Below, one piece after another: positions 20,782 through 39,216 of a DNA stretch of 64,000 nt (position 1 is its first letter; every line of letters begins with the position of its first letter). This stretch comes from a virus (Duplodnaviria > Caudoviricetes): IMG/VR virus record IMGVR_UViG_3300034175_000069; one strand, given 5' to 3'. The position numbers were made by a program, and so were the translations under genes. The notes under the pieces are model-generated. The model made no database searches, was not told where the DNA came from, and saw only the letters and a list, made by a program, of their open reading frames with translations.

Positions 20782-21566
20782 CCGCCCCACCGCCTCCCAC
20801 CGGTCCCCAGACGCCCCCTCAGCAGCCCGCCACGACCCAGCCAGCCGGGCTGGAGGCAGCCGCTACCGCCGCTGCCCAGGAGGAGGAGATCAGCGCTCTG
20901 GGCCCGGCGCTGGCTGCCTTCGTGGTCTCCGTGCTGGCCTTCGCCCGAGCAGGCGGCCGGGTGGCCGGGCTGCCGTCCACGATCGCCAAGAAGATCGGCT
21001 ACGACGCGATCATCATCGCGGCGCTCACCGCCGTGGCCATGCGCGCGCTGGACCACCAGCGGACCTTCAGCGGTCCCCGCGCCGCCGAGGAGCTGTGGGA
21101 GCACAGCGACCAGGCCGTGGTGGCCGGGGTCGAGGCGGGGCTGGAGACGCTGGCCCAGGCGGCCAAGCACATCGCCCGCTCCGCGCGCGCCGACGAGGCC
21201 ACCGGCGGATCCCCGGGGGTCTCCCTGCCGGGTGAGCCCTACGACCCCGACGCCGCTGAGCACGCCAAGAGCTACGCCGACCCCGAGCAGATCGCGCTGC
21301 CGGTCGTGCAGAGCACCCGGCACGCGGCCCAGCTGGCTGCCGCCGAGGCTGCGGGCTGGACCCGGAAGACCTGGGTGGACATGCACGACAACCGGGTGCG
21401 GGCCAGCCACGCCTTCCTCGGGTCGCCGAAGTACGAGTACCACGCGGTTCCGATTCTGGAGCCGTTCGTGACCATCGACGGCAACAAGCTCTGGTACCCC
21501 GGCGACACCTCCGCTCCCCCGCACGAGTGGATGCGCTGCCGCTGCTGGCTGAAGCTGACCAGGTAG
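20778..21566 (+). CDS. MuF-like (phage Mu gpF / SPP1 gp7) minor head protein
   Basis: C-terminal KTW...DNRVRASH...PF...YPGD...CRC motif. Confidence 0.85.
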   Translation: MTAPPPPTGPQTPPQQPATTQPAGLEAAATAAAQEEEISALGPALAAFVVSVLAFARAGGRVAGLPSTIAKKIGYDAIIIAALTAVAMRALDHQRTFSGPRAAEELWEHSDQAVVAGVEAGLETLAQAAKHIARSARADEATGGSPGVSLPGEPYDPDAAEHAKSYADPEQIALPVVQSTRHAAQLAAAEAAGWTRKTWVDMHDNRVRASHAFLGSPKYEYHAVPILEPFVTIDGNKLWYPGDTSAPPHEWMRCRCWLKLTR

Positions 21567-22126: not shown

Positions 22127-22584
22127 TGGCCGCCATCTCTGACGTGTTCGCCGAGGCCCTGACCAAGGTGATCACCGACCGGCTGAGGCCCGAGCAGGCC
22201 AGCCGCCTGGCCGCTCTGGTGGCTGCGCGCGGTGCGCGTCCGAACACCGATGCCTCGGACCAGATCCAGCTGGCGCACTTCATCCTCACGGGCAGCGGGG
22301 ACATGCCTTCAATCGAGGAGCTTCAGCGTCTGGAGGCCCTGGAGTTCTCCAGGCGAGGCACGGACGAGAGCTACACCGTCGAGCTGGGCGGCCAGCACTT
22401 CACGAAGGCCCAGTGGGAGGCCGTCCAGGTCTACGCCCAGGGCACGACCGCCGAGACAGCGCCGCTGGCCGAGGTGGCGATCGAGGAGCACCCCGACGAT
22501 CCCGGTCCGGCGGCTCCGCCGGACTTCGATGCCGTCCCGCCCGCGCCCCGCGCCGGTGAGGGGTGGCAGGGTCACGCCCCGTGA
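22126..22584 (+). CDS. hypothetical protein
   Basis: TGATG coupling and GC3 bias. Confidence 0.65.
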   Translation: MAAISDVFAEALTKVITDRLRPEQASRLAALVAARGARPNTDASDQIQLAHFILTGSGDMPSIEELQRLEALEFSRRGTDESYTVELGGQHFTKAQWEAVQVYAQGTTAETAPLAEVAIEEHPDDPGPAAPPDFDAVPPAPRAGEGWQGHAP

Positions 22585-22772
22585 GCCTGTTCCCCTTCCG
22601 GTGTTCGGCCTGCGGGACCGTCCACTACATCAACCGGGCGCTGGCCGTGGAGTGCCCGGTGGAGGCCTGCAAGGCCAAGGTCGGCCAGCCCTGCCGGGAT
22701 CTCCGGACCAAGGAGGAGGCGGGGAAGACCCGGCTCCAGCCGCACCCCGAGCGAGAGGCGCTGCTGCCATGA
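22581..22772 (+). CDS. small zinc-finger protein
   Basis: CSAC and CPVEACKAKVGQPC...H motifs. Confidence 0.65.
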   Translation: MSLFPFRCSACGTVHYINRALAVECPVEACKAKVGQPCRDLRTKEEAGKTRLQPHPEREALLP

Positions 22773-23134
22773 CGTTCCGCCGCAAGGGTGGGGGTGTCCC
22801 CGCTGCAAGCGTGGGGGTCACCCCGCTGCAAGCACTGACCCTCGGGCTGGCCACGGCCCGGTTGACACAGCTGGTGGTGGACGACGAGATCACCGAGCCG
22901 GGCCGGAAGGCCGTCCGCCGGGCCTACCAGGCTGCCGCACCCGGCTCCCAGCGAGAGACAGCGCTGGACTTGGCGGACACCGTGCTCAACTGCCACGCCT
23001 GCTCATCGGTCTGGGCCGGTGGCGCGGTCGTGACAGCCGAGCTGACCGGGGTGGGACGCTTCCTGGTGCGGGTGCTGGCGCTGAGCCAGGCTGCCCTGGC
23101 CGTGAAGGCCGTGATCGAGAGGATCGACCGATGA
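22769..23134 (+). CDS. DUF1360-like membrane protein
   Basis: LATARLTQLVVDDEITEP.R...CHACSSVW pattern. Confidence 0.75.
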   Translation: MTFRRKGGGVPAASVGVTPLQALTLGLATARLTQLVVDDEITEPGRKAVRRAYQAAAPGSQRETALDLADTVLNCHACSSVWAGGAVVTAELTGVGRFLVRVLALSQAALAVKAVIERIDR

Positions 23135-23567: not shown

Positions 23568-25214
23568 ATGGCTGGTGGGGTTCTCCGACGGAAGCGTGAC
23601 GCCGCCCCCGAGGAGGGCCTGACCGCCGGAGCGCAGGTGGTCAAGCTCCCGGAGCGCCAGGCATCGGCTGCCCGGTACAGCAAGCCCCGGGCCATCGTCG
23701 CCTCCGCCGAGCGGGTGGACCTGGACACCGCCTGGCAGGAACGATCGCGGGCGTCCTACGCCGCCTGGCAGTCCGAGGCCTGGACCGGCTACGAGCGCGT
23801 GGGCGAGATCCACTACGGCTTCAACCTGGTCTCCAGCGTGCTGTCCCGGCTGCGGGTCTTCCCCGCAGCGCTGGTTGACACCGAGGAAGCCCCGATGGGG
23901 GCCCAGGACGCGGCCGAGAAGGGCCTGGTCAGCACGGACCTGGCGCAGGACGCCGAGGAGATCATGCGGGAGATCTCCGGCCCGGCCTTCGCCGGTCTGG
24001 TCCGCAGCTTCGGCCTGAACATGAACGTCCCCGGCGAGTGCTACCTGATCCGCCTGGTGGGCGAGGACAAGGACAAGCGCAAGACGGTCCAGTGGAAGAT
24101 CGTCTCCACCGACGAGCTGGTCGTGGACGCCACCGGCGCAGTGCTCCGCCCGATCCGGGGCGAGACGACGCAGCAGAAGGTGCTCCCGAAGAACACCTAC
24201 ATCGGCCGGATCTGGCGCTCCCACCCGCGCTACTCCGGTGAGCCCGACAGCTCCATGATCGGCGTCGCCGACGCGGTCGAGGAGCTGCTGATCCTCCAGC
24301 GCCTGGTGCGCTCTGCGACCCGCACGCGGCTGAACAACGGCCTGCTGTTCCTGCCCGACGGCCTGCTGACCACGCGCATGGCGATGGCCCTGAACGGGCT
24401 GAACGAGGACGGCAGCCCGATCCCCGAGGATCAGCTGGCCGAGATGACCAACGATCCCGGCAACCAGCTGGTGGCCGACATCCTCCAGGCGATCGTCACG
24501 GCGGTCTCCGACGAGGGCGACGCCAGCGCGGTCGCGCCGATCATGGTCACCGGCGAGGGCGGCCTGGCCGAGCAGATCAAGCACATCACCTTCGAGCGCG
24601 GCTCCGACGAGTGGCTGGTCAGCCGCACCGAGCGCGCGCTGGAACGGATCCTCCAGGGCATCGACGTGCCCAAGGAGGTCGTCACCGGCCTGGCCAACGT
24701 CAAGTACTCCAACGCCCTGGTGATTGACGAGAACCTCTACAAGGCCAACATCGAGCCGCTGGCCCTGGTCCTCTCCGACGCCCTGACCGAGGTCTTCCTG
24801 CGGCCCATGTTGAGGGCCAAGGGGTATTCTGAGTCCGATCTCAACAGGATCGTCGTCTGGTACGACCCGAGCGAGATCGTCACCCGCCCGAACCAGGCCC
24901 AGGACTCCAGCGATGGCTACGACCGCTTCGTGCTCGGCCCGGGTGCCTGGCGGCGGGAGCACGGCTTCAGCGACCAGGACGCCCCGAGCGAGGCCGAGAT
25001 GGGCATGATGCTGCTGACCAGCGGCGCAGCCCTCCCGCCCGAGGTGCAGATGGCCCTGCTCCAGGCGATGCTGCCGAAGCTGCTGGGTGAGCAGCGTGAG
25101 AAGAACCTGGCGGAACAGCCGGTTCAGCAGCCCGACTCCGCCAGGAACATCCTGAGTCCAGCCCCCGAGTCCGTGAACGTCAGCGATGCAGCGACTGGAG
25201 TCAACGCCGCGTGA
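23568..25214 (+). CDS. Portal protein
   Basis: Size and position; WQSEAW.GY..VGEIHY, NLNVPGECYL, IWRSHPR...PDS and RLNNGLLFLP resemble cluster-B-like portals; leaderless promoter TACGCT-6-ATG. Confidence 0.85.
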   Translation: MAGGVLRRKRDAAPEEGLTAGAQVVKLPERQASAARYSKPRAIVASAERVDLDTAWQERSRASYAAWQSEAWTGYERVGEIHYGFNLVSSVLSRLRVFPAALVDTEEAPMGAQDAAEKGLVSTDLAQDAEEIMREISGPAFAGLVRSFGLNMNVPGECYLIRLVGEDKDKRKTVQWKIVSTDELVVDATGAVLRPIRGETTQQKVLPKNTYIGRIWRSHPRYSGEPDSSMIGVADAVEELLILQRLVRSATRTRLNNGLLFLPDGLLTTRMAMALNGLNEDGSPIPEDQLAEMTNDPGNQLVADILQAIVTAVSDEGDASAVAPIMVTGEGGLAEQIKHITFERGSDEWLVSRTERALERILQGIDVPKEVVTGLANVKYSNALVIDENLYKANIEPLALVLSDALTEVFLRPMLRAKGYSESDLNRIVVWYDPSEIVTRPNQAQDSSDGYDRFVLGPGAWRREHGFSDQDAPSEAEMGMMLLTSGAALPPEVQMALLQAMLPKLLGEQREKNLAEQPVQQPDSARNILSPAPESVNVSDAATGVNAA

Positions 25215-28200
25215 GCGACAGCCCGAAGTACACGACCGCGATCATCGCGGCGGTCCCGGCCAAGGCCGACCCCGTCAACGACGTGGTCATCGAGGACGCC
25301 CACGTCACGCTCCAGTTCCTGGGCGAGGCCGACAGCCTGTCGCCGGAGCAGATCAAGGACATCCAGGACGCCCTGGCCCTGATGGCCCCGAACCTCTACC
25401 CGTTCCCGGCGGACGTGGCCGGGACGGCCGAGCTGGGCCCGGACAAGGCCAAGGTGCTGCTGGTCCAGAGTGAGCCGCTGACCAAGCTGAAGGAGCTGCT
25501 GGGCACGGTCCCGGCGGTGTCAACCGCTGTCGCGGCGGCCGAGCAGTTCCCGAACTGGATCCCTCACCTGACCCTGGCCTACGGCGACGACGGCACGCAG
25601 GCCGACGGTGACGGCATCGAGCAGGTGACCATCGGCTCCCTGGAGCTGTGGCTGGCAGAGGAGCACCACGTGTACGAGCTGGCCAAGAGCGCACCCGGCC
25701 CGGTCGAGGAGGACAGCGAGGTCGCCAGCGTGATCGCGGCCGGACTCAAGAGCTTCGAAGAGGGCCTGCACCCGCGTGCGGCGGACGGCCGGTTCATCGA
25801 CAAGTTCGGGGTGGTCAAGTACCTCTCGCCGAAGGGCGGCTGGGAGTACGGCAAGGTCGAGGGGATCAACAAGGACGAGGACAGCGGGGCCATCCAGGTC
25901 ACGGTCACGCCCTCGGACCTGTCCGGGAAGATCACCGGCGCGGAGAGCAAGGTGCTCTCCCCGAAGCAGCTCTACCACGCACCGAAGGCCAAGGCGCACC
26001 TGACGATCGCGGCTCCCGGCTCCAAGAAGGTCGGCGGCCAGGGCGGGTCCAACCCCGGCGGGCTCTACACGATCCCAGTCGCCTTCCCGAAGGAGGGCAG
26101 CAACGGGCAGCCCGAGAAGTACTACGTCAAGCAGCCGAAGACCAAGTCCCACGGGGCCAACGAGGCGCTGGCCAACGACCTCTACGCCGAGGCCGGGGTG
26201 CCGGTCCCCGAGGTTGACATCGGCTCGGACGGCCAGATCTACAGCAAGATCATCGAGGGCAAGCAGGACATGGCTGCCCAGCTGAACAACCCCGAGTGGA
26301 CCGACCAGATCCAGCGGAACTTCGCCGTGGACGCCTGGCTCGGGAACCGCGACGTGTTCGGCATGACCTACGACAACGTCCTCACCGACGAGCACGGCAC
26401 CGCCTGGCGCATCGACAACGGCGGGGCCCTGCTCTACCGCGCGATGGGCGAGAAGAAGACCGACTTCGGCTCCCAGGTCACCGAGCTGGACGCCTTCCGT
26501 CAGGGCAAGAAGGCCAAGATCTTCGGCCCCTCGATGACCAAGGCGCAGGAGCTGGATGGGGCCGAGCGCGTGGTGGCCATCTCGCCCTCGCGCATCGAGG
26601 AGATGGTGGCCGACGCCGGGCTGCCGAAGTCCCTGGCCGACACCCTGAAGGCCCGCCGCCAGTACATCGCCAACTACTACGGGCTGGAGCTGCCCGAGAC
26701 CAAGAAGGCCGACGAGGCCCAGGAGGGCTCCAGCGCGCCGCTGGTGGACCCGGCCGACATCTCGGCGACCAAGGGCAAGGCCCGGGGCTGGTTCAAGACC
26801 ACGCTGGCGCAGGCCGCCTTCGTGCTCCAGACCGGGGACAAGGTCGAGTTCGGCGACGGCAAGCGGGTCGATCCGGGCGTGGACGACGACGGCAGCCCGC
26901 TGTCGATGATCGGCGCGGCGGCCCAGCTGCTGGGCTGGCAGAACGAGCACGGCGCGAACGCCGAGATCTTCGTCTACAAGGGCAAGGTCACCGCCGGGAT
27001 CCCCCGGCCGAGCCACGGCCAGAAGCTGGCCACCGCCGACCTGGCCGACCAGCGCTGGCAGCGCGGCGACACGATCACCAGCCCGCTGGGCAACGACGCC
27101 AAGATCCTCGGCTGGAACTCCGACACCGGCGCGGTGCTGATCCAGTACCCCAACCAGCAGCCGCAGCTGCTGGACTCCAAGGGCACGAACGCCAACGCCG
27201 GGCCCTGGACGGTCAAGAGATGGGACCCACCGGCCCAGGAAGACCTGGACCTCTCGGCCCCTGAGTCGGCCACCCCGGAGGCTCAGGCCCCGGCTCCCGC
27301 GCCCACGCCGATGGTCGAGGACGTGCCCGCGCCGGACACCGTCCCGCCGACCGCTGAAGACCTCGGGATCGTCATCCCGACGCCGGGCAAGACGGGTCAG
27401 GCCGCTGAGGCTGAGACCGCGATCAAGGCCGACCTGGACCAGCCCCTGCCCGCCGGTACCGGCGCTCCCGCTCCCGCCAAGACCTCCGCCAAGGGCGGGG
27501 CCAAGACGATGGTCCTGGGCGACGGCACCGAGGCCGCCCCGGGCGCTGAGGTGGTCAGCAAGAAGGACGGGAAGACCTACAAGTTCGTCAAGCCGAAGGG
27601 CCAGTACTCGGTCGTCACCGACCCGAACGGCGACGACCCGGACAAGCTGCTGCTGAAGCTCGCGTCCACCATGACGCAGCCCGGCAAGGAGCCCACGGCC
27701 GACGCGGGCGCGATCGAGGCCCCGAAGACCGCTACCGGGGAGATCCCGGCGCTGGGCATGATGGCCGTCTCCAAGGACGGGCACGCCGGTGAGATCACGC
27801 TGATCTCCCCGGATGGCAAGTTCGTCTTCATCACCGACGCGAACGGCGTCCGCAAGCGCAAGAGCACGGGCACGGTCACGATCACCTCCGCCCCGCAAGC
27901 GGTTGACACGACCCCGAAGGCCGCGCCCGGCCCGCTGAAGGACTACGGCGCGGCTCCCGACCTGAAGGCGGCCAAGGAGGCCTTCCCCGGGCTGGACTAC
28001 GACCCGGCTGAGGATCTGGACGCCGGGGACATGGTCATCGTCGGCTACGCCGATGGCAGCTTCGGCAAGGAGCCCTACACCGGCCAGCCGCTGGACAGCC
28101 TGCTCCAGAACACCGGGGGCAAGGTCGCCAACCACGGCACGGTGAAGGACTACACCGGCCCGATCTCCACCCAGCAGCTGGTCCAGGCGTCGGCGGTCAA

Positions 28201-31200
28201 GAACAACAGCACGACCTTCGAGGTCGTCTGGGGCGGCACGATCGGCTTCACGGACGGCACGGTGGGCCCGAGCGGCGGGCTGGTCATCTGGGGTGTTGAG
28301 AACGGGATGCCGGACCCCGGCTACGCCTTTGAGCTGCCGAAGGAGGGGCAGAACGTCCACATCCTCGGCTCGGAGGAGAACTTCGCGCTGGCGCTGCCCG
28401 GCGGCACGGGCTTCCAGGCCAACGATGGCTGGACCGGCACCGCCTCTCCGGCTCCGCTGTACGGCGACGAGGCCAAGACCCCGGCCGAGTGGTCCGGCCA
28501 GATCTCCGTCGGCCAGGAGATCAGCCTGGACGGCCAGAACTGGCTGACGGTCACGAACGTCATGGCCTCCGACTCCCTCCAGGTGGAGGACAGCAACGGG
28601 GCGACGGCCTACCTGGCTTCCTCCTCCCCGGCCACCTACGTGCTGAAGGCCCCGCCGATGAAGGACGCGGACGCGCCTTCCCCGGCCTTCGACCCGGCCA
28701 ACGACACGACCCCGGACATCCCGGGTGCGGACGAGACCACGACCACCGGGCCGCCGACCAAGAAGCCCAGTGAGCTGGTCAGCGGTGACGTGGTGGTGGC
28801 CTTCGACGGCACCTACGCGATCATCGAGCAAGCCGAGAAGGAGGACGGCTTCGGCGGCTGGAACCTCACGTCCCTGGGCACCTTCGAGACGGAGTGGGCA
28901 CCCAGCTCGGCCGACCTGAAGTACCAGGGCAACATCAAGGCCGGGTCGGTGGATGTCCCGATCGGTGCCTTCGCCGGGCAGTTCTACCCGGGCGTGAACT
29001 TCCAGCCCGGTCCGGACCACGACATGACGGTGGTCTCCTACCCGTCCCTCCAGGACAACGGCAACCAGAAGTTCGCCGTGATGATCAACGGCGACCCCGA
29101 GAACCTGGCGATCGTGCAGGTCGGCCCGGGTGCCGGAGCGGACATCGGGCCGGACGCGGTGATGGGCGTCTACCTCGCGCCCTTCCAGACCTCGGCCGAG
29201 AGCGGCGTGGACACGGGCAAGGTCAACGACCTGTTCGACGCCAGCGTGACGGTCGATCAGACCCCGCCGGACCACTACTGGGCGATGTCTGACCAGGGCA
29301 TCGACTTCGGCAACGCGCAGTACCCGATCTACGCCAGCGGCAGTGGCGGCTACTACCGGATCGGCCCGAACGGCGGGCAGGTCTGGAACGCCGCGCAGCT
29401 GGAGTGGGAGTCCTCCAGCACGACCGTCACCGGCATGGACAAGGTCTGGGACGGCAAGCCTTTCGAGGGCAAGCTGAAGATCCCCGAGGGCACGAGCCTC
29501 TCGCTGTACGGCGCGGGCTCGGCGGACTACAAGCCTGACGCGGGCGAGGCCGTCGCCCTCATCACGCTGCCCGGCACTTCCGGCGCGCTGATCGTCTCCC
29601 CGTCCGGCAGCTTCTCACCGGGGTCGAAGGTCTACACGGTCAAGGGCGACGGCTCCGGGGTCTACTCCCCCGGCTACAACGTCGAGGACCTGGGCCCCGG
29701 CCAGATCACCGTCATCCACGACCCCTTCGGTCCGGTTGACACGGGTCCGGCGCTGGTCCACCACCAGGGCCCGCTGGCTCCGACCTTCCTGGCGAACAAG
29801 CTCAACGACTACGGCTACACCCCGGCCGACGGGGAGACCTTCCTGATCGCGCAGATGCCCTCCGGGGGCATGTCGGTGCTGACCAAGCAGTCCGACGGCA
29901 CCTACAAGAAGATCGGCTACTCCGGCCTGGGTCAGAAGACCTGGACGCTGGACGAGGTCATCGAGCAGGGCAACGACGTCGGGGCGGACTTCTACACCTG
30001 GACGCATGTCCCCGAGGGTGAGAACGGGCCGACCGTGGTTGCCGGGCTGCCCGGGGACTACGCGCCGTTCATCCCGGGCGAGGGCCAGGCGGTCCTGAAG
30101 TCCACGATGCCCAACGGCAAGGTGAGCATCTACCTCCAGCAGCAGCCCGGCGGCGGCTGGTACCTGATGTCCCCGGACGGGACGATTGACGAGTCCTCGG
30201 ACGCGATCAAGAGCAACCACGTCGTCCAGATGAAGCTGTCGGGCAAGGGCTCCAGCAGCCAGAAGTACGAGCTGCTGCACCCGACCGAGGGCGGCACGAA
30301 GGCCACGCCGGACGCCCCGCCGACCTTCAGCAACCAGTCCACCTCGTTCACCCCGGCCCCGGGGCAGAAGGTCGTGCAGCTGCTCAGCTACGAGGGCGAC
30401 GACGACCCTTGGTTCTTCGTGCAGAGCACGCCGGGTGGCGAGTGGGCTCCGGCCCCGACCAACCCCGAGGCCGGGGCTCCGCTGGGCGACTCCGGGATGC
30501 AGGCCTACCTGGCCAAGTCCCTGGCTGCTCAGCCGGGCGCTGCCGGGTCCAAGTACACGCTGGTCTACGACGGCACCGGCAGCGCGGCTGCTCCGGCGGT
30601 TGACACCGAGGACACCCCGACGCCGGACTTCGAGGGGTACATCCCGCAGACCGGCGACAAGGTCATCTCCTACGCGCCGAACGGCACGACGGACCCGTAC
30701 TTCTACGTCCAGCAGGGCGGCGAGGGCCCGTACAAGATGGCCGTCGGGGGCCAGCTCTCCAGCTCCACGGTGATGCAGGCCAGCGAGATCCCGACCAACC
30801 TGGGCCCGGAGTTCGGCAACGACTTCCACCAGGAGTGGCCGCTGCCCGAGACGACCCCGGCCGCTCCGGCCGGTGGTGGCGTCTTCGACGGCTACCAGAG
30901 CGACCCCGGCGACAACGTCGTCTCCTTCACCGGCCCCACCGGCGGGACCACCACGGTGGTCAAGAAGGACGGCACCTGGCAGCCGATCGTCAACGGCCAG
31001 CTGGAGGCCGATGACGCCTACAGCCAGGACACGATGGAGTGGGCGGCCAGCCAGTCCGGCTACACCGTCAACGTCCTCCAGGGCTCGCTGAAGGGCGTCC
31101 CGGGCGAGGGTGCACCGCTGGACACCGGTGGGGAGCACTACGCCGGGGTCAGCGTCGCCACGACGCTGTCCAAGGACGCGGTCACCACCCAGGACGCCTC

Positions 31201-33973
31201 GCAGCTCAGCCCGACCGCGATGGACAAGCTGGACGGCCTGAAGCTGGCCGTCGGTCAGTCGGCCTGGGTTGCTGGCAACTCCGTCTTCGTGCGGAACAGC
31301 ACGGGCGAGTGGTTCTACGCCTACACGGACGGGTCGCTGGACCTGGCTCCCACGTTCAGCGACGACGCGGACATGGCGGCCTTCTTCGGCAACACCACCG
31401 CCCCGGCCCCGGTCAAGGTCATCGTCACCGCCCCGACGGCGGCCCCGGCTCCCCCGGCGGCCAACCTCTACGCCGGTCCGGCCATCTCCGGCTGGGCTGC
31501 TGAGGGGCTGCCCGACCCCACCGGCTTCGGTCACCTGGCCAGCTCGGCCGATGCGGTCGGGATGAAGGCGGGCGACTGGCTCTACGTCCAGGGCCTGACC
31601 GGCGGCGGCAACAGCGGCCTGTTCATTCAGCTGCACTCGGACGTGGACCCGGCCACCGGCGGGGACGTGGTCAAGCTCAGCCAGTGGGCGGCCGTGAAGG
31701 ACGGCCAGGTCCAGCCGATCAAGAAGCCCAGCGGCACGCTGGACTTCACCAGCTTCAGCCTGGTCGCGGCGGACTCGATCTACGCGCAGGGCAGTGCGGG
31801 CACCGCGCCTGCGCCGACCGTGCCTGCCACCCCCACCGCGAACGCCCCCATCGCGTCTGTGCCGTCCGCTCCCGAGGCCCCGGCCACTCCGGCCTACCCC
31901 GGCGCTCAGAAGCCCTCTCAGGAGGACATCAACGCCTGGGGCGGGTCGCTGACCAAGGACGGGCACATCCCGACCTCGGGCATGTACGTCACGGGCAAGG
32001 GCCCGATGTCGGGCAAGGTCATCTCGGTCTCGAAGGACAAGACCAAGGCGGTCGTGCTCACCTCGGACGGGAAGAAGACCACCCGCCTGATCGAGGCCCT
32101 GAAGACCGACAAGTCGGCGAACTACAAGGCCTACGCGGCCCCGGTCACGCTGAAGGACATCCCCGGCGGGATGCCGCTGGCGGTTGACACGCCTGGAGAG
32201 GCGCTGGCCAAGACCGCGAAGGACGGGAAGTTCCGGGCCATCCTCACGGCGGCTCCGGGCGTCAGCGGCGGCCAGATGGTCGTCACGAAGACCACCGGCC
32301 CGTCGGGCAAGACCTACAACCGGGTGCACCTGACCCTGACCCCCGCCCAGCGGGAGCAGCTGGTCGCGTCGCTGGCGGGCTCCGGGGAGAAGGGCGACTG
32401 GGTCACCAGCTCCAAGATGTCGCAGGCGGTCGCCGCCGGTGACCTGCTGCCGATGCGGAAGTCCTCCACGGACAACCCGGACGGGACCCCGCGCTGGAAG
32501 GTGGACCCCGCCCAGGTGCCGCCGACCCACGAGGTCACCGGCGTGGTGGACGACCCGGCCGCCAGCGGCGTCAAGATCGTCACGCTGAAGGACCGGAACA
32601 CCGGCGAGGAGATCACCAGCCGGTTCCACCCCGGCAAGAGCCTGACGGTCTACGCCTGGGACGAGAACAAGCCGAAGAAGATCACCGCCGGTGCCTTCTC
32701 GGTCGGCGAGATCGCCAAGGCCCAGGGCTGGTCCCTGGTCACCGATGGCGGGATCTCGGCGGTCAAGGGCGGTGCGGAGAACGGCTCGCTCTACAACGAG
32801 CCCGGCTCGGCCGTGACCAAGAGCGCGCTGGGCCAGGTCTCGCACAGCTGGAAGACGCTGCGCAACGTCTCGGAGGACGGCGTCGTCATCGAGACGGTGG
32901 ACCCGAAGGGCAGCAACGGGCACTCGACCACCGGCGTCACGGTGATCACGCTGCCCGAGGGTGTGGACGAGAAGTCCCTGGGCGCGGCGCTGGCCAAGAT
33001 GGGGATCGACTACTCCCCGATGACCCAGGACTCGGCCAAGGACAACGTGCGGGGCGCGCTCCGCACGCTGCTGAGCCTGGACACCCACGACGTGGACACC
33101 CCGAAGCACTACACCGACGAGATGCTGTTCTCCCAGGCCGGGAAGACGATGGGCATCACCGACCTGGGCTGGCAGGACGTGCTGGTCGGGGTGGACGAGT
33201 CCACCGGCAAGACCAGCTTCTTCTGGTCGGACCGGGCGCGGAACGCGCTCGCCGCGAAGGCCAAGTACAACCTGGTCTACCGGGCGGCCACCACGGCCAA
33301 CGCCGCGCAGATCGTGTCAACCGTGAAGTACGGCTCGGCCAGTTCGATCCTGAAGAAGACCACCGGGATGCTGGACGGCTCCGGCTCGGTCGGGAACGGT
33401 GCCTCGGCCAGCTCGGACAACGCCAACCACGCCGGGCACGGGTCCTACGCCTCGGCCAGCACGGTCAACAAGCTGCCCAGCTCCAACGCCTCGGCCAGCT
33501 ACAAGACCGCCGGGATGATGATCTACCACCGTCCCGAGGCGGTCCTGGGCCGGATCATGGACTTCCGGGTGGCCAACCACGACGCCTTCGGGATGGGCCA
33601 CGGCCAGGGTGCCGACCACCTGGCCCACGCCACCTCGATGTCCTCGGTGAAGGACTACTTCCTCGGCGGCGGGCTGCCGACGGAGGCGGTCGGCTTCATC
33701 GCCGTGCAGAGCGCTGAGGAGCGGCTGAAGGCGATCGAGCAGCTGAAGAAGGACGGCTTCGAGATGATCAACGGCCGCCCGATCGAGGACATCGTCATCA
33801 CGAAGCAGAAGGCCGCGACGATGACCCCCGACGACCTGCCGCCGGTCACGATCCCGGCCAACGCCCGGCCGATCCTGGACCTGCCGGTCTCCTACGACAC
33901 CGCTGCCCCGGCGGCGAGTGCTCCGGCCGCTGCTGCTCCCGTCACCGCTACCGCTGGAGATGCTGTCGCATGA
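25211..33973 (+). CDS. Giant (2920 aa) multidomain head-associated protein: 2H phosphoesterase, HPRxxxGRF motif, HipA/PI3K-like kinase, repeats, unknown C-terminal domain
   Basis: HVTL...HLTL pair; LHPRAADGRF; GGQGGSNPGG, YYVK, NEAL, DAWLGNRD, NVL, IDNGG; strong GC3 bias throughout. Confidence 0.85.
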   Translation: MSDSPKYTTAIIAAVPAKADPVNDVVIEDAHVTLQFLGEADSLSPEQIKDIQDALALMAPNLYPFPADVAGTAELGPDKAKVLLVQSEPLTKLKELLGTVPAVSTAVAAAEQFPNWIPHLTLAYGDDGTQADGDGIEQVTIGSLELWLAEEHHVYELAKSAPGPVEEDSEVASVIAAGLKSFEEGLHPRAADGRFIDKFGVVKYLSPKGGWEYGKVEGINKDEDSGAIQVTVTPSDLSGKITGAESKVLSPKQLYHAPKAKAHLTIAAPGSKKVGGQGGSNPGGLYTIPVAFPKEGSNGQPEKYYVKQPKTKSHGANEALANDLYAEAGVPVPEVDIGSDGQIYSKIIEGKQDMAAQLNNPEWTDQIQRNFAVDAWLGNRDVFGMTYDNVLTDEHGTAWRIDNGGALLYRAMGEKKTDFGSQVTELDAFRQGKKAKIFGPSMTKAQELDGAERVVAISPSRIEEMVADAGLPKSLADTLKARRQYIANYYGLELPETKKADEAQEGSSAPLVDPADISATKGKARGWFKTTLAQAAFVLQTGDKVEFGDGKRVDPGVDDDGSPLSMIGAAAQLLGWQNEHGANAEIFVYKGKVTAGIPRPSHGQKLATADLADQRWQRGDTITSPLGNDAKILGWNSDTGAVLIQYPNQQPQLLDSKGTNANAGPWTVKRWDPPAQEDLDLSAPESATPEAQAPAPAPTPMVEDVPAPDTVPPTAEDLGIVIPTPGKTGQAAEAETAIKADLDQPLPAGTGAPAPAKTSAKGGAKTMVLGDGTEAAPGAEVVSKKDGKTYKFVKPKGQYSVVTDPNGDDPDKLLLKLASTMTQPGKEPTADAGAIEAPKTATGEIPALGMMAVSKDGHAGEITLISPDGKFVFITDANGVRKRKSTGTVTITSAPQAVDTTPKAAPGPLKDYGAAPDLKAAKEAFPGLDYDPAEDLDAGDMVIVGYADGSFGKEPYTGQPLDSLLQNTGGKVANHGTVKDYTGPISTQQLVQASAVKNNSTTFEVVWGGTIGFTDGTVGPSGGLVIWGVENGMPDPGYAFELPKEGQNVHILGSEENFALALPGGTGFQANDGWTGTASPAPLYGDEAKTPAEWSGQISVGQEISLDGQNWLTVTNVMASDSLQVEDSNGATAYLASSSPATYVLKAPPMKDADAPSPAFDPANDTTPDIPGADETTTTGPPTKKPSELVSGDVVVAFDGTYAIIEQAEKEDGFGGWNLTSLGTFETEWAPSSADLKYQGNIKAGSVDVPIGAFAGQFYPGVNFQPGPDHDMTVVSYPSLQDNGNQKFAVMINGDPENLAIVQVGPGAGADIGPDAVMGVYLAPFQTSAESGVDTGKVNDLFDASVTVDQTPPDHYWAMSDQGIDFGNAQYPIYASGSGGYYRIGPNGGQVWNAAQLEWESSSTTVTGMDKVWDGKPFEGKLKIPEGTSLSLYGAGSADYKPDAGEAVALITLPGTSGALIVSPSGSFSPGSKVYTVKGDGSGVYSPGYNVEDLGPGQITVIHDPFGPVDTGPALVHHQGPLAPTFLANKLNDYGYTPADGETFLIAQMPSGGMSVLTKQSDGTYKKIGYSGLGQKTWTLDEVIEQGNDVGADFYTWTHVPEGENGPTVVAGLPGDYAPFIPGEGQAVLKSTMPNGKVSIYLQQQPGGGWYLMSPDGTIDESSDAIKSNHVVQMKLSGKGSSSQKYELLHPTEGGTKATPDAPPTFSNQSTSFTPAPGQKVVQLLSYEGDDDPWFFVQSTPGGEWAPAPTNPEAGAPLGDSGMQAYLAKSLAAQPGAAGSKYTLVYDGTGSAAAPAVDTEDTPTPDFEGYIPQTGDKVISYAPNGTTDPYFYVQQGGEGPYKMAVGGQLSSSTVMQASEIPTNLGPEFGNDFHQEWPLPETTPAAPAGGGVFDGYQSDPGDNVVSFTGPTGGTTTVVKKDGTWQPIVNGQLEADDAYSQDTMEWAASQSGYTVNVLQGSLKGVPGEGAPLDTGGEHYAGVSVATTLSKDAVTTQDASQLSPTAMDKLDGLKLAVGQSAWVAGNSVFVRNSTGEWFYAYTDGSLDLAPTFSDDADMAAFFGNTTAPAPVKVIVTAPTAAPAPPAANLYAGPAISGWAAEGLPDPTGFGHLASSADAVGMKAGDWLYVQGLTGGGNSGLFIQLHSDVDPATGGDVVKLSQWAAVKDGQVQPIKKPSGTLDFTSFSLVAADSIYAQGSAGTAPAPTVPATPTANAPIASVPSAPEAPATPAYPGAQKPSQEDINAWGGSLTKDGHIPTSGMYVTGKGPMSGKVISVSKDKTKAVVLTSDGKKTTRLIEALKTDKSANYKAYAAPVTLKDIPGGMPLAVDTPGEALAKTAKDGKFRAILTAAPGVSGGQMVVTKTTGPSGKTYNRVHLTLTPAQREQLVASLAGSGEKGDWVTSSKMSQAVAAGDLLPMRKSSTDNPDGTPRWKVDPAQVPPTHEVTGVVDDPAASGVKIVTLKDRNTGEEITSRFHPGKSLTVYAWDENKPKKITAGAFSVGEIAKAQGWSLVTDGGISAVKGGAENGSLYNEPGSAVTKSALGQVSHSWKTLRNVSEDGVVIETVDPKGSNGHSTTGVTVITLPEGVDEKSLGAALAKMGIDYSPMTQDSAKDNVRGALRTLLSLDTHDVDTPKHYTDEMLFSQAGKTMGITDLGWQDVLVGVDESTGKTSFFWSDRARNALAAKAKYNLVYRAATTANAAQIVSTVKYGSASSILKKTTGMLDGSGSVGNGASASSDNANHAGHGSYASASTVNKLPSSNASASYKTAGMMIYHRPEAVLGRIMDFRVANHDAFGMGHGQGADHLAHATSMSSVKDYFLGGGLPTEAVGFIAVQSAEERLKAIEQLKKDGFEMINGRPIEDIVITKQKAATMTPDDLPPVTIPANARPILDLPVSYDTAAPAASAPAAAAPVTATAGDAVA

Positions 33974-34842: not shown

Positions 34843-34985
34843 TCCAGCTGGACTGCCCGGCGGCCATCCGATCGGCCGCTGGACTGTTCGCCGGACTGGC
34901 CGCTGCCGGGCAGCGACCACCCGATGGGATGTACCTGGCCATCGTTGCTGCCGCACGTGTCAACGGGATGCTGCATGATCCTGCT

Positions 34986-36362
34986 GTGCTGACAGCCGCC
35001 AAGTGGCAGGACTGGCTGCACCCGCGCGGCAAGGACGGGCGCTTCATCGAGAAGCAGAGCTTCGTCAACGTCTTCGCCAGCGAGAACGCGCTGCTGTCCG
35101 ACCGCACTGCGGTGCGCCGCCGGGCCAAGATCAGCGACCTCCGTCCCGAGGGTGCCTACGTCGCCTACCAGGACGTGGAGGGCAACCCGATCCCGTCCGA
35201 CGACGCGGCTGGCTTCCCCGCGCTGATCCCGGTCGAGCAGCTGTCCACGAAGGTCTCCACCGCGCCCAAGGCGCTGGCCCACCTCCAGCCCGGCGAGTCC
35301 GCGCGCAAGGAGGTCCAGGACGCCCTGGTCCCGGCGATGAGCCAGGACGACTACGACGTGAAGATCGCCGAGATCAACGCCCAGATCCACGAGAAGCACC
35401 CCGAGCAGGCGGCGATCGTGTCAACCGGCCAGGGGGCCATCACCGACGCCGAGATGGAGAGCCACCTGGGCTTCATCGCCGAGGTGCACAGCCAGTACCT
35501 GGAGGGCGAGGGCCTGGGCTACGACTCGGCCTTCAAGGACAGCTTCGGCCTGTGGTCGGAGGAGTGGCAGCAGATCTTCGACGCGGTCGTGGACGAGGTC
35601 TACGACGAGGTCACGGTCAACCAGTCCAAGCCGAAGAACCGCCGCGCCATCATGCTCGGCGGGCTGCCGGGGGCCGGGAAGTCCTCCACCCTGGATGCGA
35701 TGGCGCAGAGCGGGTCCTTCCGCAAGGACGAGTGGATCACGATCAACCCGGACCTGTTCAAGGACAAGATGTTCGAGCGGGGGCTGCACCCGGACATCGA
35801 GGGCCTGGCCCCGGCCGAGACGGCCAGCTTCGTGCACGCCGCCAGCTCCGAGATGAGCTACATGCTGGAGCAGCTGCTGAGCGTCGAGGGCTACAACCTG
35901 ATCTTCGACATCACGATGGGCGGCACGGCGCGCGCCGGGCAGAAGCCGAACTACGAGCAGGTCACCGACCACCTGGGCAACTGGGACTACGTCGTGGACG
36001 GCGTCTTCGTGGACGTGGACCCGGGCACCTCCCGGGAGCGGGTGGCGCTGCGCCACCAGCAGGGCCTGGACGCACTGCGCACGGGGCGCTCCCGGCGGCC
36101 GGACGATCCCGAGATCGTCAACGGCGGCCGGGTCGTGCCGGACTCCGTCATCGCGGACAACATCCTGGACGAGAACGACCCCGACGCCCAGCGCTACAAC
36201 TCGGCGAACGCCCGGAACTTCGACCAGATGAAGGCCACGTTCGTGCGGTGGGCGGAATGGGACAACACCGGCAAGAAGCCGGTCTTCATCGGCGGCAGTG
36301 GCACTGGTCCCGATGACACCGAGGGCACCCCCGGCTTCTATCCCGAGGAGCAGGCCGCATGA
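34986..36362 (+). CDS. Zeta-toxin-like P-loop kinase with an N-terminal HPRxxxGRF motif
   Basis: IMLGGLPGAGKSS Walker A, INPDLFK, IFDIT, FVDVD...SRERV...R; leaderless GTG after CATGAT-6. Confidence 0.85.
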   Translation: MLTAAKWQDWLHPRGKDGRFIEKQSFVNVFASENALLSDRTAVRRRAKISDLRPEGAYVAYQDVEGNPIPSDDAAGFPALIPVEQLSTKVSTAPKALAHLQPGESARKEVQDALVPAMSQDDYDVKIAEINAQIHEKHPEQAAIVSTGQGAITDAEMESHLGFIAEVHSQYLEGEGLGYDSAFKDSFGLWSEEWQQIFDAVVDEVYDEVTVNQSKPKNRRAIMLGGLPGAGKSSTLDAMAQSGSFRKDEWITINPDLFKDKMFERGLHPDIEGLAPAETASFVHAASSEMSYMLEQLLSVEGYNLIFDITMGGTARAGQKPNYEQVTDHLGNWDYVVDGVFVDVDPGTSRERVALRHQQGLDALRTGRSRRPDDPEIVNGGRVVPDSVIADNILDENDPDAQRYNSANARNFDQMKATFVRWAEWDNTGKKPVFIGGSGTGPDDTEGTPGFYPEEQAA

Positions 36363-36673
36363 CCGCACCCGCAGATCTGACGACCGGTCAGAACGTCCAG
36401 CCGGTACGCGATGCCCTGGAGGCGCTGCGCGCTGGCACGGGCGACTACGAAGCGGTCAGGAAGGCCGTCGGATTGGCGCGGTTCGCCATTCGGCCGCCGC
36501 TGCGCACGCTGGAGGAGATCGGCCGGAACTGGGACTACGTCCCGATCCCGGACAGCTTCACGGATACTGTCAGTGTCGCGCGGTGGCAGAAAGTGCTGAC
36601 GCCTGAGCAGGAGAGGGAGCTGAAGGGCTTGGCCAAGTTCATCGCTCCCGCACCCCAGGACCAGGAGAGCTGA
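36359..36673 (+). CDS. hypothetical protein
   Basis: ATGA overlap with the zeta-like gene (possible partner or antitoxin; unproven). Confidence 0.65.
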   Translation: MTAPADLTTGQNVQPVRDALEALRAGTGDYEAVRKAVGLARFAIRPPLRTLEEIGRNWDYVPIPDSFTDTVSVARWQKVLTPEQERELKGLAKFIAPAPQDQES

Positions 36674-36675
36674 CC

Positions 36676-39216
36676 ATGCCGCTGATGATGTCGGGGTTCG
36701 ACCTTCAGCACCGTCCCACCCGGACGATGCGCGAAGCAGCCCGAGGCTCCAGCGATCCGGTCTCCGCCCTCGTGTCAACCGGCCAGGTCCGGTCGTGGGA
36801 CCTGCTGACCCTGAAGTCCTCCTCGATCCCCGGAGCTTCCGACTGGGCCGAGCGCACGCTGGACGCGGTCGTTGCAGCCGCTGCAACGAGTGCGACCAAG
36901 CCGCTGGACTGCGCCGACTGCGAGGACGTGGGCTTCTACGGCATCGCGGACGCCGAGGACACCGACAAGCTGGTCGGCCTGCTGCGCCGGGTGGGCGAGA
37001 ACGGCTACGAGCAGCTGGTGGCCGGAGCCTGGCGGCCTTACGAGACCCGCTACGACCAGCACGTGGAAGTCCTCTCCCGGGACCTGGCCGGAGATCTGGC
37101 CGAGGCGTTGACCGCCGGTGCCACCGGCCTGGTCCGCCGGTACTTCTGGCCGATCGCCTTCCTGCCGCCCGAGCGCCTGATCGCTGCGGGACCAGCACCC
37201 GAGGAGGTGCTGAGCACTCCGCCGAAGGCAGCCACCGAGGACGTGACGGCCGGTCCCGAGGACGGCTGGACCGAGTACGCGATCGTGGACGAGCTGGACA
37301 CCGGCGCGGTGCTGGAGCTGATCCGGCTGCGTCCGGGGCCCGAGCTGCTGGCCTACCGCAACGGCAAGTGGGACGAGGCTCCCGAGGTGCTGGCCCAGCT
37401 CCAGGGCGTCCAGCCTCCACCCCTGGTTGAGCTTGACCAGGCCCAGCTGGACAACGTCCTGGAGCAGATCGGCCAGGGTCAAGGTGAGGCTGAGGGTTCC
37501 GAGGACAGCGGGGATCCGGGCGAAGGCCTGGACGAGGCCGACAAGACCGAGCCGGTCGCGGCGGCCGGGGAGAAGAAGCACACGCTGCCCGAGGGCGCGT
37601 TCCCCATCGACAACCGCGACGACCTGAAGAAGGCCGTCAAGGCGCTCGGCCGGGCGACGAACAAGAACGCCGCGAAGCGGCACATCATCAAGCGGGCCCG
37701 GGAGCTGAACGCTGTCGGCGTGCTTCCCGAGGACTGGGGGATCACGGCCGGAGCGAAGGGCGCGCTGGTCGCTGACGCCCCGCTGACGGTCTCCCCTGAC
37801 CCGCGCGCCGAGAAGCTGCGCCGCTACTGGACCAGTGGCAAGGGCGCGGCCAAGATCCGCTGGGGGACGCCGGGCGACTGGACCCGGTGCTACCGCCAGC
37901 TGCGCAAGTACATGGGCGTGCGGGCCAAGGGCTACTGCCAGAACCTGCACAAGCGGGCCACGGGTCAGTGGTCCGGAGCCCGTGGGAACCGGACCGCAGG
38001 AGCGGTCGCAGCATCTGGGCGACCCGCTCAGGCCGTGCTGTCGATAGAAGCTGCGCTGGTCGCAGCGATGTCAACCGGCCGCTGGATCGGCCCGGGAGGA
38101 GAGAGCATGACCACGACCCTGAAGGACGGCATCTACGCCGAGGCAGGCAACGAGGGTGGCCTGCTCCGGACCCTCACCGCTGCGGGGTTCCCCGTGGCAC
38201 CGCCGGACGACTGGTTCGCTGACCCTCAGCTGGAGGGTCCGACTCCGCTCACGGTGGACGACGACGGCCGGGTCTACGGCCACATCGCCACCCGGGACGT
38301 GGCGCACATCGGCCTGCCCGGCCGGGTGCACGCGCCGAAGTCCCGCACCGACTACGCCTACTTCAAGACCGGCCAGCTGGTGACCGCCAGCGGCAAGCGG
38401 ATCAACGTCGGGCAGCTGACCCTGGCTGGCGGCCACGCGCCCCTCCAGGCCGACGCTGCGGCGGCCGTGGCCCACTACGACAACACGGCCAGCGCGGCGG
38501 CCGATGTCAACTGCGGCGACGACAAGTGGGGCATCTGGGTGGCCGGGTCGATCCGGCCGGAGGTCACCCCGAACCAGCTCCGCGTGCTCCGTGCGAGTGC
38601 GCCGTCCGGCGACTGGCGGCCGATCAACGGCAACCTGGAGCTGGTCGCCTGCTGCCAGGTCAACGTCCCCGGCTTCCCGGTCACCCGGGCGCGCGTGGCC
38701 AGCGGCGCGATCATGTCGCTGGTGGCCGCCGGTTCCCGGCCGCTCTACGCGATGCGCCTGGCCATGCTGGCCGACGCCGCTGTGGCCGAGCGCCTGACCG
38801 CGCTGGAGGCCCACGTTTACGGTGTAAGCGACGGCCCGGACCTGGTGGGCGACGAGTCTGTCGTGGCCGACGGTGAGCCGGTGGACGCCGATGCTTCCGT
38901 CACGACCGAAACGGACACCGCCGAGGAGGTCGAGGAGGAGGAGACTCCGGCCCCCGAGGAGAAGCCCGTCTCCGAGGCTGTCCAGCGTGCTCGCGCGCTG
39001 GCCGCCGAGCGCCGGGCGGCTGCCGCTGCCACTGAGGAGGTCCCGGCCGAGGAGGCTCCGGCCGTCGAGGCCGAGACCCCAGCCGAGGAGAACGTGGCCG
39101 AGCTGACCCCCGACGAGCAGGAGCGGGCCGACCGCCTGGCCGCGCTGCGTGCTCGCGTGCACGGCGGTGACAAGCAGCCGGTCGCCGCGTCCGCAGGTGA
39201 CCCGGGAAAAGCCTGA
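36676..39216 (+). CDS. Capsid maturation protease fusion protein (cluster-B-like)
   Basis: GRVYGHIA...YAYFKTG...GGHA...HYDNT...GIWVAG...SGDWR...LELVA...VNVPGFP; KIRWGTPGDWTRC...C..LH module; acidic scaffold-like C-terminus. Confidence 0.8.
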   Translation: MPLMMSGFDLQHRPTRTMREAARGSSDPVSALVSTGQVRSWDLLTLKSSSIPGASDWAERTLDAVVAAAATSATKPLDCADCEDVGFYGIADAEDTDKLVGLLRRVGENGYEQLVAGAWRPYETRYDQHVEVLSRDLAGDLAEALTAGATGLVRRYFWPIAFLPPERLIAAGPAPEEVLSTPPKAATEDVTAGPEDGWTEYAIVDELDTGAVLELIRLRPGPELLAYRNGKWDEAPEVLAQLQGVQPPPLVELDQAQLDNVLEQIGQGQGEAEGSEDSGDPGEGLDEADKTEPVAAAGEKKHTLPEGAFPIDNRDDLKKAVKALGRATNKNAAKRHIIKRARELNAVGVLPEDWGITAGAKGALVADAPLTVSPDPRAEKLRRYWTSGKGAAKIRWGTPGDWTRCYRQLRKYMGVRAKGYCQNLHKRATGQWSGARGNRTAGAVAASGRPAQAVLSIEAALVAAMSTGRWIGPGGESMTTTLKDGIYAEAGNEGGLLRTLTAAGFPVAPPDDWFADPQLEGPTPLTVDDDGRVYGHIATRDVAHIGLPGRVHAPKSRTDYAYFKTGQLVTASGKRINVGQLTLAGGHAPLQADAAAAVAHYDNTASAAADVNCGDDKWGIWVAGSIRPEVTPNQLRVLRASAPSGDWRPINGNLELVACCQVNVPGFPVTRARVASGAIMSLVAAGSRPLYAMRLAMLADAAVAERLTALEAHVYGVSDGPDLVGDESVVADGEPVDADASVTTETDTAEEVEEEETPAPEEKPVSEAVQRARALAAERRAAAAATEEVPAEEAPAVEAETPAEENVAELTPDEQERADRLAALRARVHGGDKQPVAASAGDPGKA

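Follow-up and report, generated by a model that had tools for sequence, protein, structure and literature searches.

A giant phage protein encoded next to the portal, with 2H phosphoesterase, CtkA/HipA-like kinase and ADP-ribosyltransferase-like domains, as a probable head-packaged polyvalent effector

The polyvalent proteins of phages lie among virion genes and have been predicted to be packaged and injected; their repertoire includes 2H phosphoesterase, ADP-ribosyltransferase (ART) and zeta-like kinase domains (PMC5512222; PMC9503650). The 2H domains have been found fused to MuF or portal domains, in proteins that are probably injected (PMC5512222; PMC9503650). The kinase described in the polyvalent-protein survey has no C-lobe and is found chiefly in Verrucomicrobia, Chlamydia and Bacteroidetes (PMC5512222). 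The giant protein described here resembles these proteins in having unrelated effector-type domains on a giant chain encoded amid portal, terminase and head genes, and of the 2H, ART and zeta-like kinase domains in the surveyed repertoire, the zeta-like kinase is here the product of a neighbouring gene (PMC5512222). It differs from the surveyed proteins (PMC5512222) in having no MuF, metallopeptidase or other hub domain, in a kinase that is not of the type lacking a C-lobe and matches no Pfam kinase model, and in a C-terminal ART-like domain that matches no Pfam ART model, including those that came from the survey. A MuF (PF04233) or portal fusion domain in the giant protein (P0001) was searched for with Pfam and PHROG, and no match was obtained. 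While the kind of protein is already known, the domain combination, two large families without a curated model and a recurrent short motif, named here the HPR motif, are new.

The DNA analysed (64,000 nucleotides; the window) is part of a contig of 85,438 bp (C109) from a 6.48-Mb assembly with ~70% G+C. The contig assembles as a circle because its termini share an overlap of 141 bp, and its gene content is that of a siphovirus. Judged by portal similarity, its nearest relatives in culture are phages of Microbacterium, Gordonia and Arthrobacter. The large terminase gene is followed by a MuF-like gene, a DUF1360 gene and the portal gene, and then by the giant gene, a gene for a 290-aa protein and a zeta-toxin-like kinase gene (Table 1). 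Further downstream lie a 104-aa gene, the gene for an 846-aa protein with PHROG matches of head-protease type, and the genes for the major head, major tail, adaptor, tape measure and tail proteins. The 2920-aa reading frame next to the portal, as given in the original prediction, was found to be genuine, with overlaps of 4 bases at both ends. Its GTG start overlaps the portal stop codon (GTGA) and has a GGAG sequence 11 bases on its 5' side, and its TGA stop codon shares bases with the start codon (ATG) of the 290-aa gene (ATGA). Family searches with the 290-aa protein (PHROG, Pfam and NCBIfam) gave no match; homologues of its gene were found 3' of the giant gene in the relatives L004 (46% identity) and L028 (30%).

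Table 1. Coordinates of the genes and of the regions of the giant protein in the window.
Feature	Residues (aa)	Position (nt)	Strand	Evidence or remark
Large terminase		19174-20781
MuF-like gene, separate from giant gene		20778-21566
Portal	548 aa	23568..25214	+	phrog_776 portal, E 2.5e-97
Giant polyvalent protein gene (P0001)	2920 aa	25211..33973	+	ORF and translation; relatives; alignment A1
2H phosphoesterase domain, LigT/ThpR-like	~8-170	25232..25720	+	HxT motifs, aa 31-34 and 119-122
HPR motif, LHPRAADGRFIDKF	186-199	25766..25807	+	Candidate tag common to cargo proteins of the head module
Small beta-rich extension N-terminal to kinase	~194-261	25790..25993	+	AF2 strands, pLDDT above 90
Atypical protein-kinase-like domain, CtkA/actin-fragmin kinase/HipA/PI3-4K-like	~262-500	25994..26710	+
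Conserved alpha/beta domain	~514-674	26750..27232	+	High pLDDT
Helix and two small SH3-like beta-barrels, conserved in A1	~730-890	27398..27880	+	Model, pLDDT above 90
Variable acidic Gly/Pro-rich region, no detectable repeats	~900-1436	27908..29518	+	Composition; few invariant columns (G, P, W)
Six tandem divergent ~85-95-aa modules	1437-1975	29519..31135	+	Self-BLAST, motif scan, HMM
C-terminal frame, part 1	~2231-2640	31901..33130	+	KOW/Tudor/SH3-like and EF-P domain-I-like beta-barrels
C-terminal ADP-ribosyltransferase-like domain	~2674-2872	33230..33826	+	Candidate triad R2691, Y2746, D2815
Coupled downstream gene	290 aa	33970..34842	+	ATGA overlap; conserved beside giant gene
Zeta-toxin-like P-loop kinase	477 aa	34929..36362	+	PF06414, E 3.7e-15
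Major head protein		41496-43091

Full-length relatives of the giant protein, about 30 in number, were found on metagenomic phage contigs of 85-90 kb, each of which probably represents an entire genome of this phage group. The search with the C-terminal region gave 18 relatives of 1728-3163 aa, and that with the kinase region gave more. The alignment of 14 full-length relatives (A1; 36-60% identity) showed seven conserved blocks spanning aa 1-170, 177-260, 270-500, 500-680, 730-890, 2230-2620 and 2640-2900, and poor conservation between aa 900 and 2220, where Gly, Pro and Trp account for most of the invariant columns. The gene order around the giant gene is repeated in the 90-kb relative L004, and portal homologues (36-50% identity) are located 5' of the giant gene in L001, L004, L028 and L029. 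The genes of two distant members of the family, P0082 (2432 aa) and P0160 (3160 aa), lie directly 3' of a portal homologue (36-40% identity), with a DUF1360 gene in front of the latter at both loci; in P0160 the frame elements are the same and ADPrib_exo_Tox and NUDIX domains stand between them. Many giant phage proteins have a constant frame in common, made up of the HPR motif, the kinase and the ~700 C-terminal residues, and the middle is variable.

Among cultured phages, gp66 of the Gordonia phage Phendrix (1479 aa), encoded directly 3' of the portal, carries the HPR motif and has only this and the kinase in common with the giant protein, and gp129 of the Yersinia phage fHe-Yen8-01 (2146 aa) has only the kinase domain (35% identity). 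The C-terminal frame is absent from both. When the middle and C-terminal parts were searched with tblastn against 50,697 phage records no match was obtained, and a literature search on "LHPR", fHe-Yen8-01 and CtkA in phages found nothing relevant. A note in the GenBank record of fHe-Yen8-01 annotates gp129 as "phage particle associated protein", the single experimental indication that a relative is part of the virion.

Because the giant gene adjoins the portal gene and joins 2H, kinase and ART-like domains, its product is most likely a head cargo delivered with the DNA, and we consider it probable that the giant protein is a polyvalent effector that is packaged in the head and ejected with these three enzyme domains. 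The gene context and the identities of the domains (from HMM matches, fold or conservation) are observed here: at least two unrelated effector domains (2H, kinase and ART-like) are found in one phage polypeptide, and this is encoded among the late/virion genes of a phage with portal and terminase. Injection of a polyvalent protein fits the position in the head module and the adjacency to the portal, which is kept down to 36% portal identity; it also fits the particle-associated note on the kinase-sharing Yersinia phage protein. Two points count against packaging: the giant protein has no MuF or portal fusion domain, and the cultured relatives have only the kinase domain in common with it. Alternatively, the protein could be a late-expressed intracellular enzyme that is not packaged and acts in the producing cell, for example against host defence, abortive infection or superinfection late in the cycle. 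This would agree with the lack of a MuF, portal or known capsid-targeting domain, and the note on particle association concerns a protein that shares nothing beyond the kinase domain. We regard this alternative as improbable, since the position in the head block and the coupling are conserved over wide divergence, a kinase-bearing phage protein is annotated as particle-associated, and the HPR motif, common to other head-module enzymes, suggests a common fate.

In the mechanism that we infer for the packaged effector, the giant protein would be made late, translationally coupled to the portal gene, in the siphovirus head module. It would be loaded into the procapsid and then ejected into the cell with the DNA, with proteolytic processing as a conceivable additional step, and one chain would thereby deliver three enzymes into the host. 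The expected reaction of the LigT/ThpR-type 2H domain would be the opening of 2',3'-cyclic phosphates or 2'-5' linkages; its substrates could then be the ends of cleaved RNA or the nucleotide second messengers that host defence employs. The CtkA/HipA-like atypical Ser/Thr kinase would phosphorylate a host target, and the ART-like domain of the H-Y-E class (here R-Y-D), with NAD+ as cosubstrate, would modify a macromolecule of the host. What happens in the first minutes of infection is decided by head-packaged effectors, few of which have been characterised; the giant protein ties three predicted host-directed chemistries to a single deliverable chain.

The N-terminal HVT/HLT pair had been assigned to a 2H phosphoesterase, and the family searches bore this out. 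The PF13563 model scored 37.4 bits (cut-off 27), both HVTL (aa 31-34) and HLTL (aa 119-122) lie inside the match, and at least 90% of the 14 orthologues retain H31, T33, H119 and T121. The family profile matched the Pyrococcus 2H protein PH0099 (PDB 1vdx; E 2e-5), with HVTL and HLTL aligned to its HITL motifs. The two HxT motifs and the above-threshold PF13563 match are features in common with LigT/ThpR phosphodiesterases and with the 2H-MuF/portal fusions of actinophages. The domain differs from the former in scoring under the cut-off of the ThpR equivalog model (TIGR02258, RNA 2',3'-cyclic phosphodiesterase; E 7.5e-8), the one match obtained from NCBIfam. PF13563 also matched 11 of 17 relatives. 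As the 2H domain is present in only 27 of the 173 collected proteins, it appears to be a clade-specific addition. In Arthrobacter and Microbacterium phages, proteins annotated "capsid maturation protease and MuF-like fusion" begin with this domain, in agreement with the published observation of 2H domains joined to MuF or portal domains (PMC5512222; PMC9503650). The actinophage fusions join the 2H domain to MuF or protease, whereas here it is joined to a kinase-bearing giant protein.

The link to the anti-CBASS enzyme Acb1 that had been suggested for this domain found no support beyond membership of the 2H superfamily. Its family model (PF23474) did not match the giant protein at E≤1, and gave only sub-threshold matches in 6 of the 17 relatives (best E 0.02). 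By analogy with Acb1 of T4, an anti-CBASS phosphodiesterase of the same superfamily, an anti-signalling role is conceivable. The host assembly was searched for a SMODS cyclase and none was found, a result that says little either way; a CBASS-directed role of the 2H domain is therefore without local support.

The kinase-like domain was found with all the motifs that had been listed for it (Gly-rich loop, YVK, NE, DAWLxNxD, DN and IDNGG), and these are near-invariant. Its key residues are the Gly-rich loop at 275-284, K307, E318, D374, N379, D381, D388-N389 and D402-G405. In 209 copies of the domain, G275-G284, K307, E318, D374/N379/D381/D388-N389 and D402 are near-invariant; among non-gap residues, conservation was 181/194 for K307, 183/190 for E318, 187/187 for N379 and 180/187 for D402. 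Because the catalytic residues are kept across the 209 copies, the domain is likely an active phosphotransferase, as predicted from the sequence conservation. A HMMER search with aa 181-560 against 1.84 billion cluster representatives gave 4101 proteins at E≤1e-3, most of them 1000-3500 aa long, and 2542 at E≤1e-10. Forty-five collected proteins have two to five kinase copies each.

The structure of aa 175-900 was predicted with AlphaFold2 from a 39-sequence alignment (mean pLDDT 86; above 90 in the kinase domain). The predicted model has a bilobal kinase fold, in which the Gly-rich loop would lie between strands 1 and 2, K307 at the end of strand 3 and E318 in the helix after strand 3; the DAWLxNxD-x6-DN loop is placed after the next long helix and D402-G-G after the last strand facing the N-lobe. 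In a Foldseek search of the model against PDB, the matches listed were almost all kinases, with VPS34 and PI4KIII-beta leading, and the closest structures to the kinase domain are protein Ser/Thr kinases. The HipA/PI3K-like identity proposed earlier is backed by this predicted fold and the conserved motifs. Since single-sequence and profile searches of the region against PDB found nothing, the kinase call is based on fold and motifs. The HipA families (PF07804/PF20613) did not match the giant protein, and gave sub-threshold matches only, in the relative P0044. Pfam searches of the giant protein, of 17 relatives and of another 15, more distant, proteins with the kinase gave no kinase family above threshold; the domain is covered by no Pfam or NCBIfam model and by no PHROG with a functional name. 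Although comparable in fold, CtkA of Helicobacter pylori (JHP0940; PDB 3akk), actin-fragmin kinase and HipA/HipT have no sequence-level relation to the phage kinase. The DAWLxNxD-x6-DN loop of the latter is without the His of DxH/DRH loops, and the phage kinase, unlike CtkA and HipA, is embedded in a giant protein, often in two to five copies. That the kinase is without a sequence-level link to any solved kinase counts against the reading as a packaged effector.

The domain is flanked by further conserved elements. The VIA alignments to actin-fragmin kinase and HipA also cover the small beta-rich extension on its N-terminal side. The alpha/beta domain that follows has the invariant residues R599, R618, D620, N636 and D672 in A1; an ESM Atlas search with aa 514-680 gave no lead.

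The stretch between the conserved blocks had been described as about 2000 aa of acidic Gly/Pro-rich repeats. The composition was as described, with a net charge of -7 to -21 per 200 aa and 20-24% Gly+Pro, but repeats were found only in the six modules at aa 1437-1975. Each module of ~85-95 aa begins with (G)Y-x-P-x-x-G-(D/E). An HMM built from the six modules matches its own copies by construction, and gave one weak extra match at aa 772-813. The rest of aa 900-2230 is variable and no repeats were detected in it. Profile matches of the repeats to designed beta-trefoils were weak (E 0.008-0.15) and were judged to be compositional. The six tandem beta modules of ~90 aa and the SH3-like barrels resemble displayed repeat arrays, and one relative has a weak SH3_3 match; such a beta-module array outside the head could make the protein a capsid surface decoration or an adhesin. 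We consider this highly improbable, because the three domains need cosubstrates or substrates of the cytoplasm (ATP, NAD+, and RNA or nucleotides) and no Ig-like, Big or carbohydrate-binding family was found by Pfam in the giant protein and its relatives. A surface decoration and an unpackaged late enzyme both fit the evidence less well than a packaged effector.

The C-terminal domain had been called basic. The net charge is +2 at aa 2601-2800 and -6 at aa 2801-2920, so the last ~250 residues do not bear this out, and the only basic stretch is aa 2201-2400 (+8). The tentative suggestion of an ART-like fold in this region fared better. The YRAAT and GSYAS strings that had been pointed out are present on predicted strands with the candidate ART residues R2691 and Y2746, and the three triad positions fall on strands predicted at 2688-2693, 2744-2750 and 2812-2819. 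In an alignment of 88 sequences, position 2691 on predicted strand 1 is His in 48 and Arg in 28, position 2746 on predicted strand 2 is Tyr in 51 and Phe in 37, and position 2815 on predicted strand 5 is Glu in 58 and Asp in 30. This H/R-Y/F-E/D pattern is the H-Y-[ED] signature of one ART class.

The closest shape to the last domain is that of DarT (DUF4433, PF14487), the DNA ADP-ribosyltransferase of the DarTG toxin-antitoxin system. The hhalign comparison with 12 DarT sequences from genomes of the same phylum, from which the DarT-bearing genome G057 was left out, gave a score of 29.4 (P 0.0012) with a probability of only 19%, and placed position 2815 on the catalytic Glu of DarT. The scores with 60 column-shuffled DarT alignments were 11.3 ± 2.1, with a maximum of 19.2. 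With relaxed thresholds the alignment was colinear over 163 columns, with all three DarT motifs in register. The structural similarity to DarT, the profile match and the H-Y-E-type triad together support an ART-like fold, and we are fairly confident that the last domain has it. The DarT HMM has no match in the genome of the window, though 19 of 301 genomes of the phylum match, and membership of the DarT family is thus not supported. The phage domain also differs from DarT in its R-Y-D triad in this clade, in having no DarG-like macrodomain partner, and in being the C-terminus of a 2920-aa protein; a DNA target is not implied. Pfam gave no ART family above threshold in the giant protein, 17 relatives and 15 distant kinase-bearing proteins. 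The ESM Atlas leads for the last domain, all below 0.9, were DUF3626, OspC and ART-PolyVal. Foldseek of the C-terminal model found no match in PDB at E≤0.001, and only small SH3-like phage proteins in BFVD. A word-based search for a stand-alone last domain returned only fragments of orthologues. This H-Y-E ART-like domain and the CtkA-like kinase, whose thousands of cluster representatives are covered by neither Pfam nor NCBIfam nor a functional PHROG, are the two large dark families of the giant protein.

The HMM of the last domain matched the extreme C-terminus of 93 of ~170 collected proteins. This constant position could mean a structural or assembly role, and counts against the effector reading. 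In the main rival explanation, the giant protein would have a chiefly structural role inside the head or in ejection, for example as a portal-associated core, a DNA-spooling or an ejectosome element; its constant frame would serve assembly or DNA delivery and its enzyme-like domains would be secondary or non-catalytic. In agreement with such a role, the frame keeps its position across distant phages while the middle varies, the many small KOW/Tudor/SH3-like barrels and the basic stretch could bind DNA, and the gene is tightly coupled to that of the portal, with the 290-aa partner gene conserved alongside. K307, E318, D381, N389 and D402 of the kinase and the acidic residue of the ART-like domain are kept in nearly all copies, which argues for catalysis and against a purely structural role, and we consider the structural explanation rather unlikely. 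The structural and effector roles are not mutually exclusive.

The LHPRAADGRF string that had been noticed near 25770 was found at aa 186-195 (nt 25766-25795). The segment LHPRAADGRFIDKF follows the 2H domain, ~10 residues after VIAAG, and the L, H, P, R, D, G and F of LHPRxxDGRF are invariant in the A1 orthologues. Of 165 kinase-bearing proteins, 110 have a single HPR motif, always on the N-terminal side of the first kinase domain and often within the first 70 residues. The contig has only one other copy, near the N-terminus of the zeta-like kinase, LTAAKWQDWLHPRGKDGRF (LHPRGKDGRF, nt 35019). The motif also occurs in head-module proteins of relatives, four in L004 and two in L028, each copy behind a similar h-x-A-(A/G) element. 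A tblastn search with a 25-aa HPR segment returned only the already known Gordonia phages, the query being too insensitive. The recurrence in relatives supports a shared role, for which head loading and protease processing are the candidates. More speculatively, the protein may represent a widespread but unannotated delivery chassis of actinobacterial phages, in which a short tag, h-x-A-(A/G)-x6-10-(L/K)HPRxxxG(R/K)F, marks diverse enzymes for loading into the head beside the portal and serves as a portable capsid-targeting signal, and the CtkA-like kinase with the C-terminal H-Y-E ART frame carries exchangeable inserts. The tagged enzymes would then be the giant protein, the zeta-like kinase and other head-module proteins, and the inserts would be the 2H domain here, and ADPrib_exo_Tox with NUDIX or extra kinase copies elsewhere. 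If the HPR motif is a loading signal, it would make phage cargo proteins easy to recognise in genomes and could be used to load chosen proteins into laboratory phage capsids. The zeta-like kinase gene with its HPR motif is also present in L004.

The giant portal-adjacent protein of this phage carries the motif LHPRAADGRF (HPR motif), and the same motif, as LHPRGKDGRF at 35019, was found in a zeta-toxin-like P-loop kinase encoded in the head module. The pair formed by this kinase gene and a 104-aa gene, motif included, is also present in the 90-kb relative L004. In the related phages L004 and L028, the motif (L/K)HPRxxxG(R/K/Q/M)F was found in two to four different head-module proteins per phage, and every copy in these two loci is preceded, by ~8–12 residues, by an h-x-A-(A/G) element. 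The motif together with this element could be a common loading or processing signal.

Some relatives of the giant protein carry multiple CtkA-like kinase domains per chain; five copies were found in P0028 (3416 aa), three in P0036 and two in P0039 (7004 aa). P0160, a distant member of the same portal-adjacent family in locus L029, has ADPrib_exo_Tox and NUDIX domains alongside its kinase and C-terminal domains, and its architecture thereby shows that effector inserts are exchanged inside one frame.

Among the other head-module genes, the MuF-like (head morphogenesis) gene stands separately, and thus the giant protein has no MuF domain of its own, though the phage has one. In L028 and L029, both distant loci, the equivalent position upstream of the portal is likewise taken by short DUF1360 genes. 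The PHROG families matched by an 846-aa protein carry differing labels (virion structural protein, portal or head maturation protease), and a Pfam search of this protein gave no match; it is probably the prohead protease joined to other parts.

Coordinates of head-module features in the window and in related loci (prefixed)
Feature	Position	Remark
MuF-like gene	20778-21566	directly 3' of terminase gene
DUF1360 protein gene	22232-23134	short distance upstream of portal
Zeta-toxin-like kinase	34929-36362	PF06414, E 3.7e-15
104-aa gene	36359-36673	overlaps end of zeta-like kinase gene
846-aa protein	36676-39216	strong PHROG matches at aa ~498-812
HPR-motif copies, L004	10607, 19344, 23415, 24056	
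HPR-motif copies, L028	8172, 18332	
P0160	L029:2511-11993	

The window corresponds to C109:5784-69783. The two ends of this 85,438-bp contig overlap by 141 bp, and therefore C109 is a complete phage genome, assembled circular, within a bacterial genome assembly. The contigs bearing relatives are 85–90 kb.
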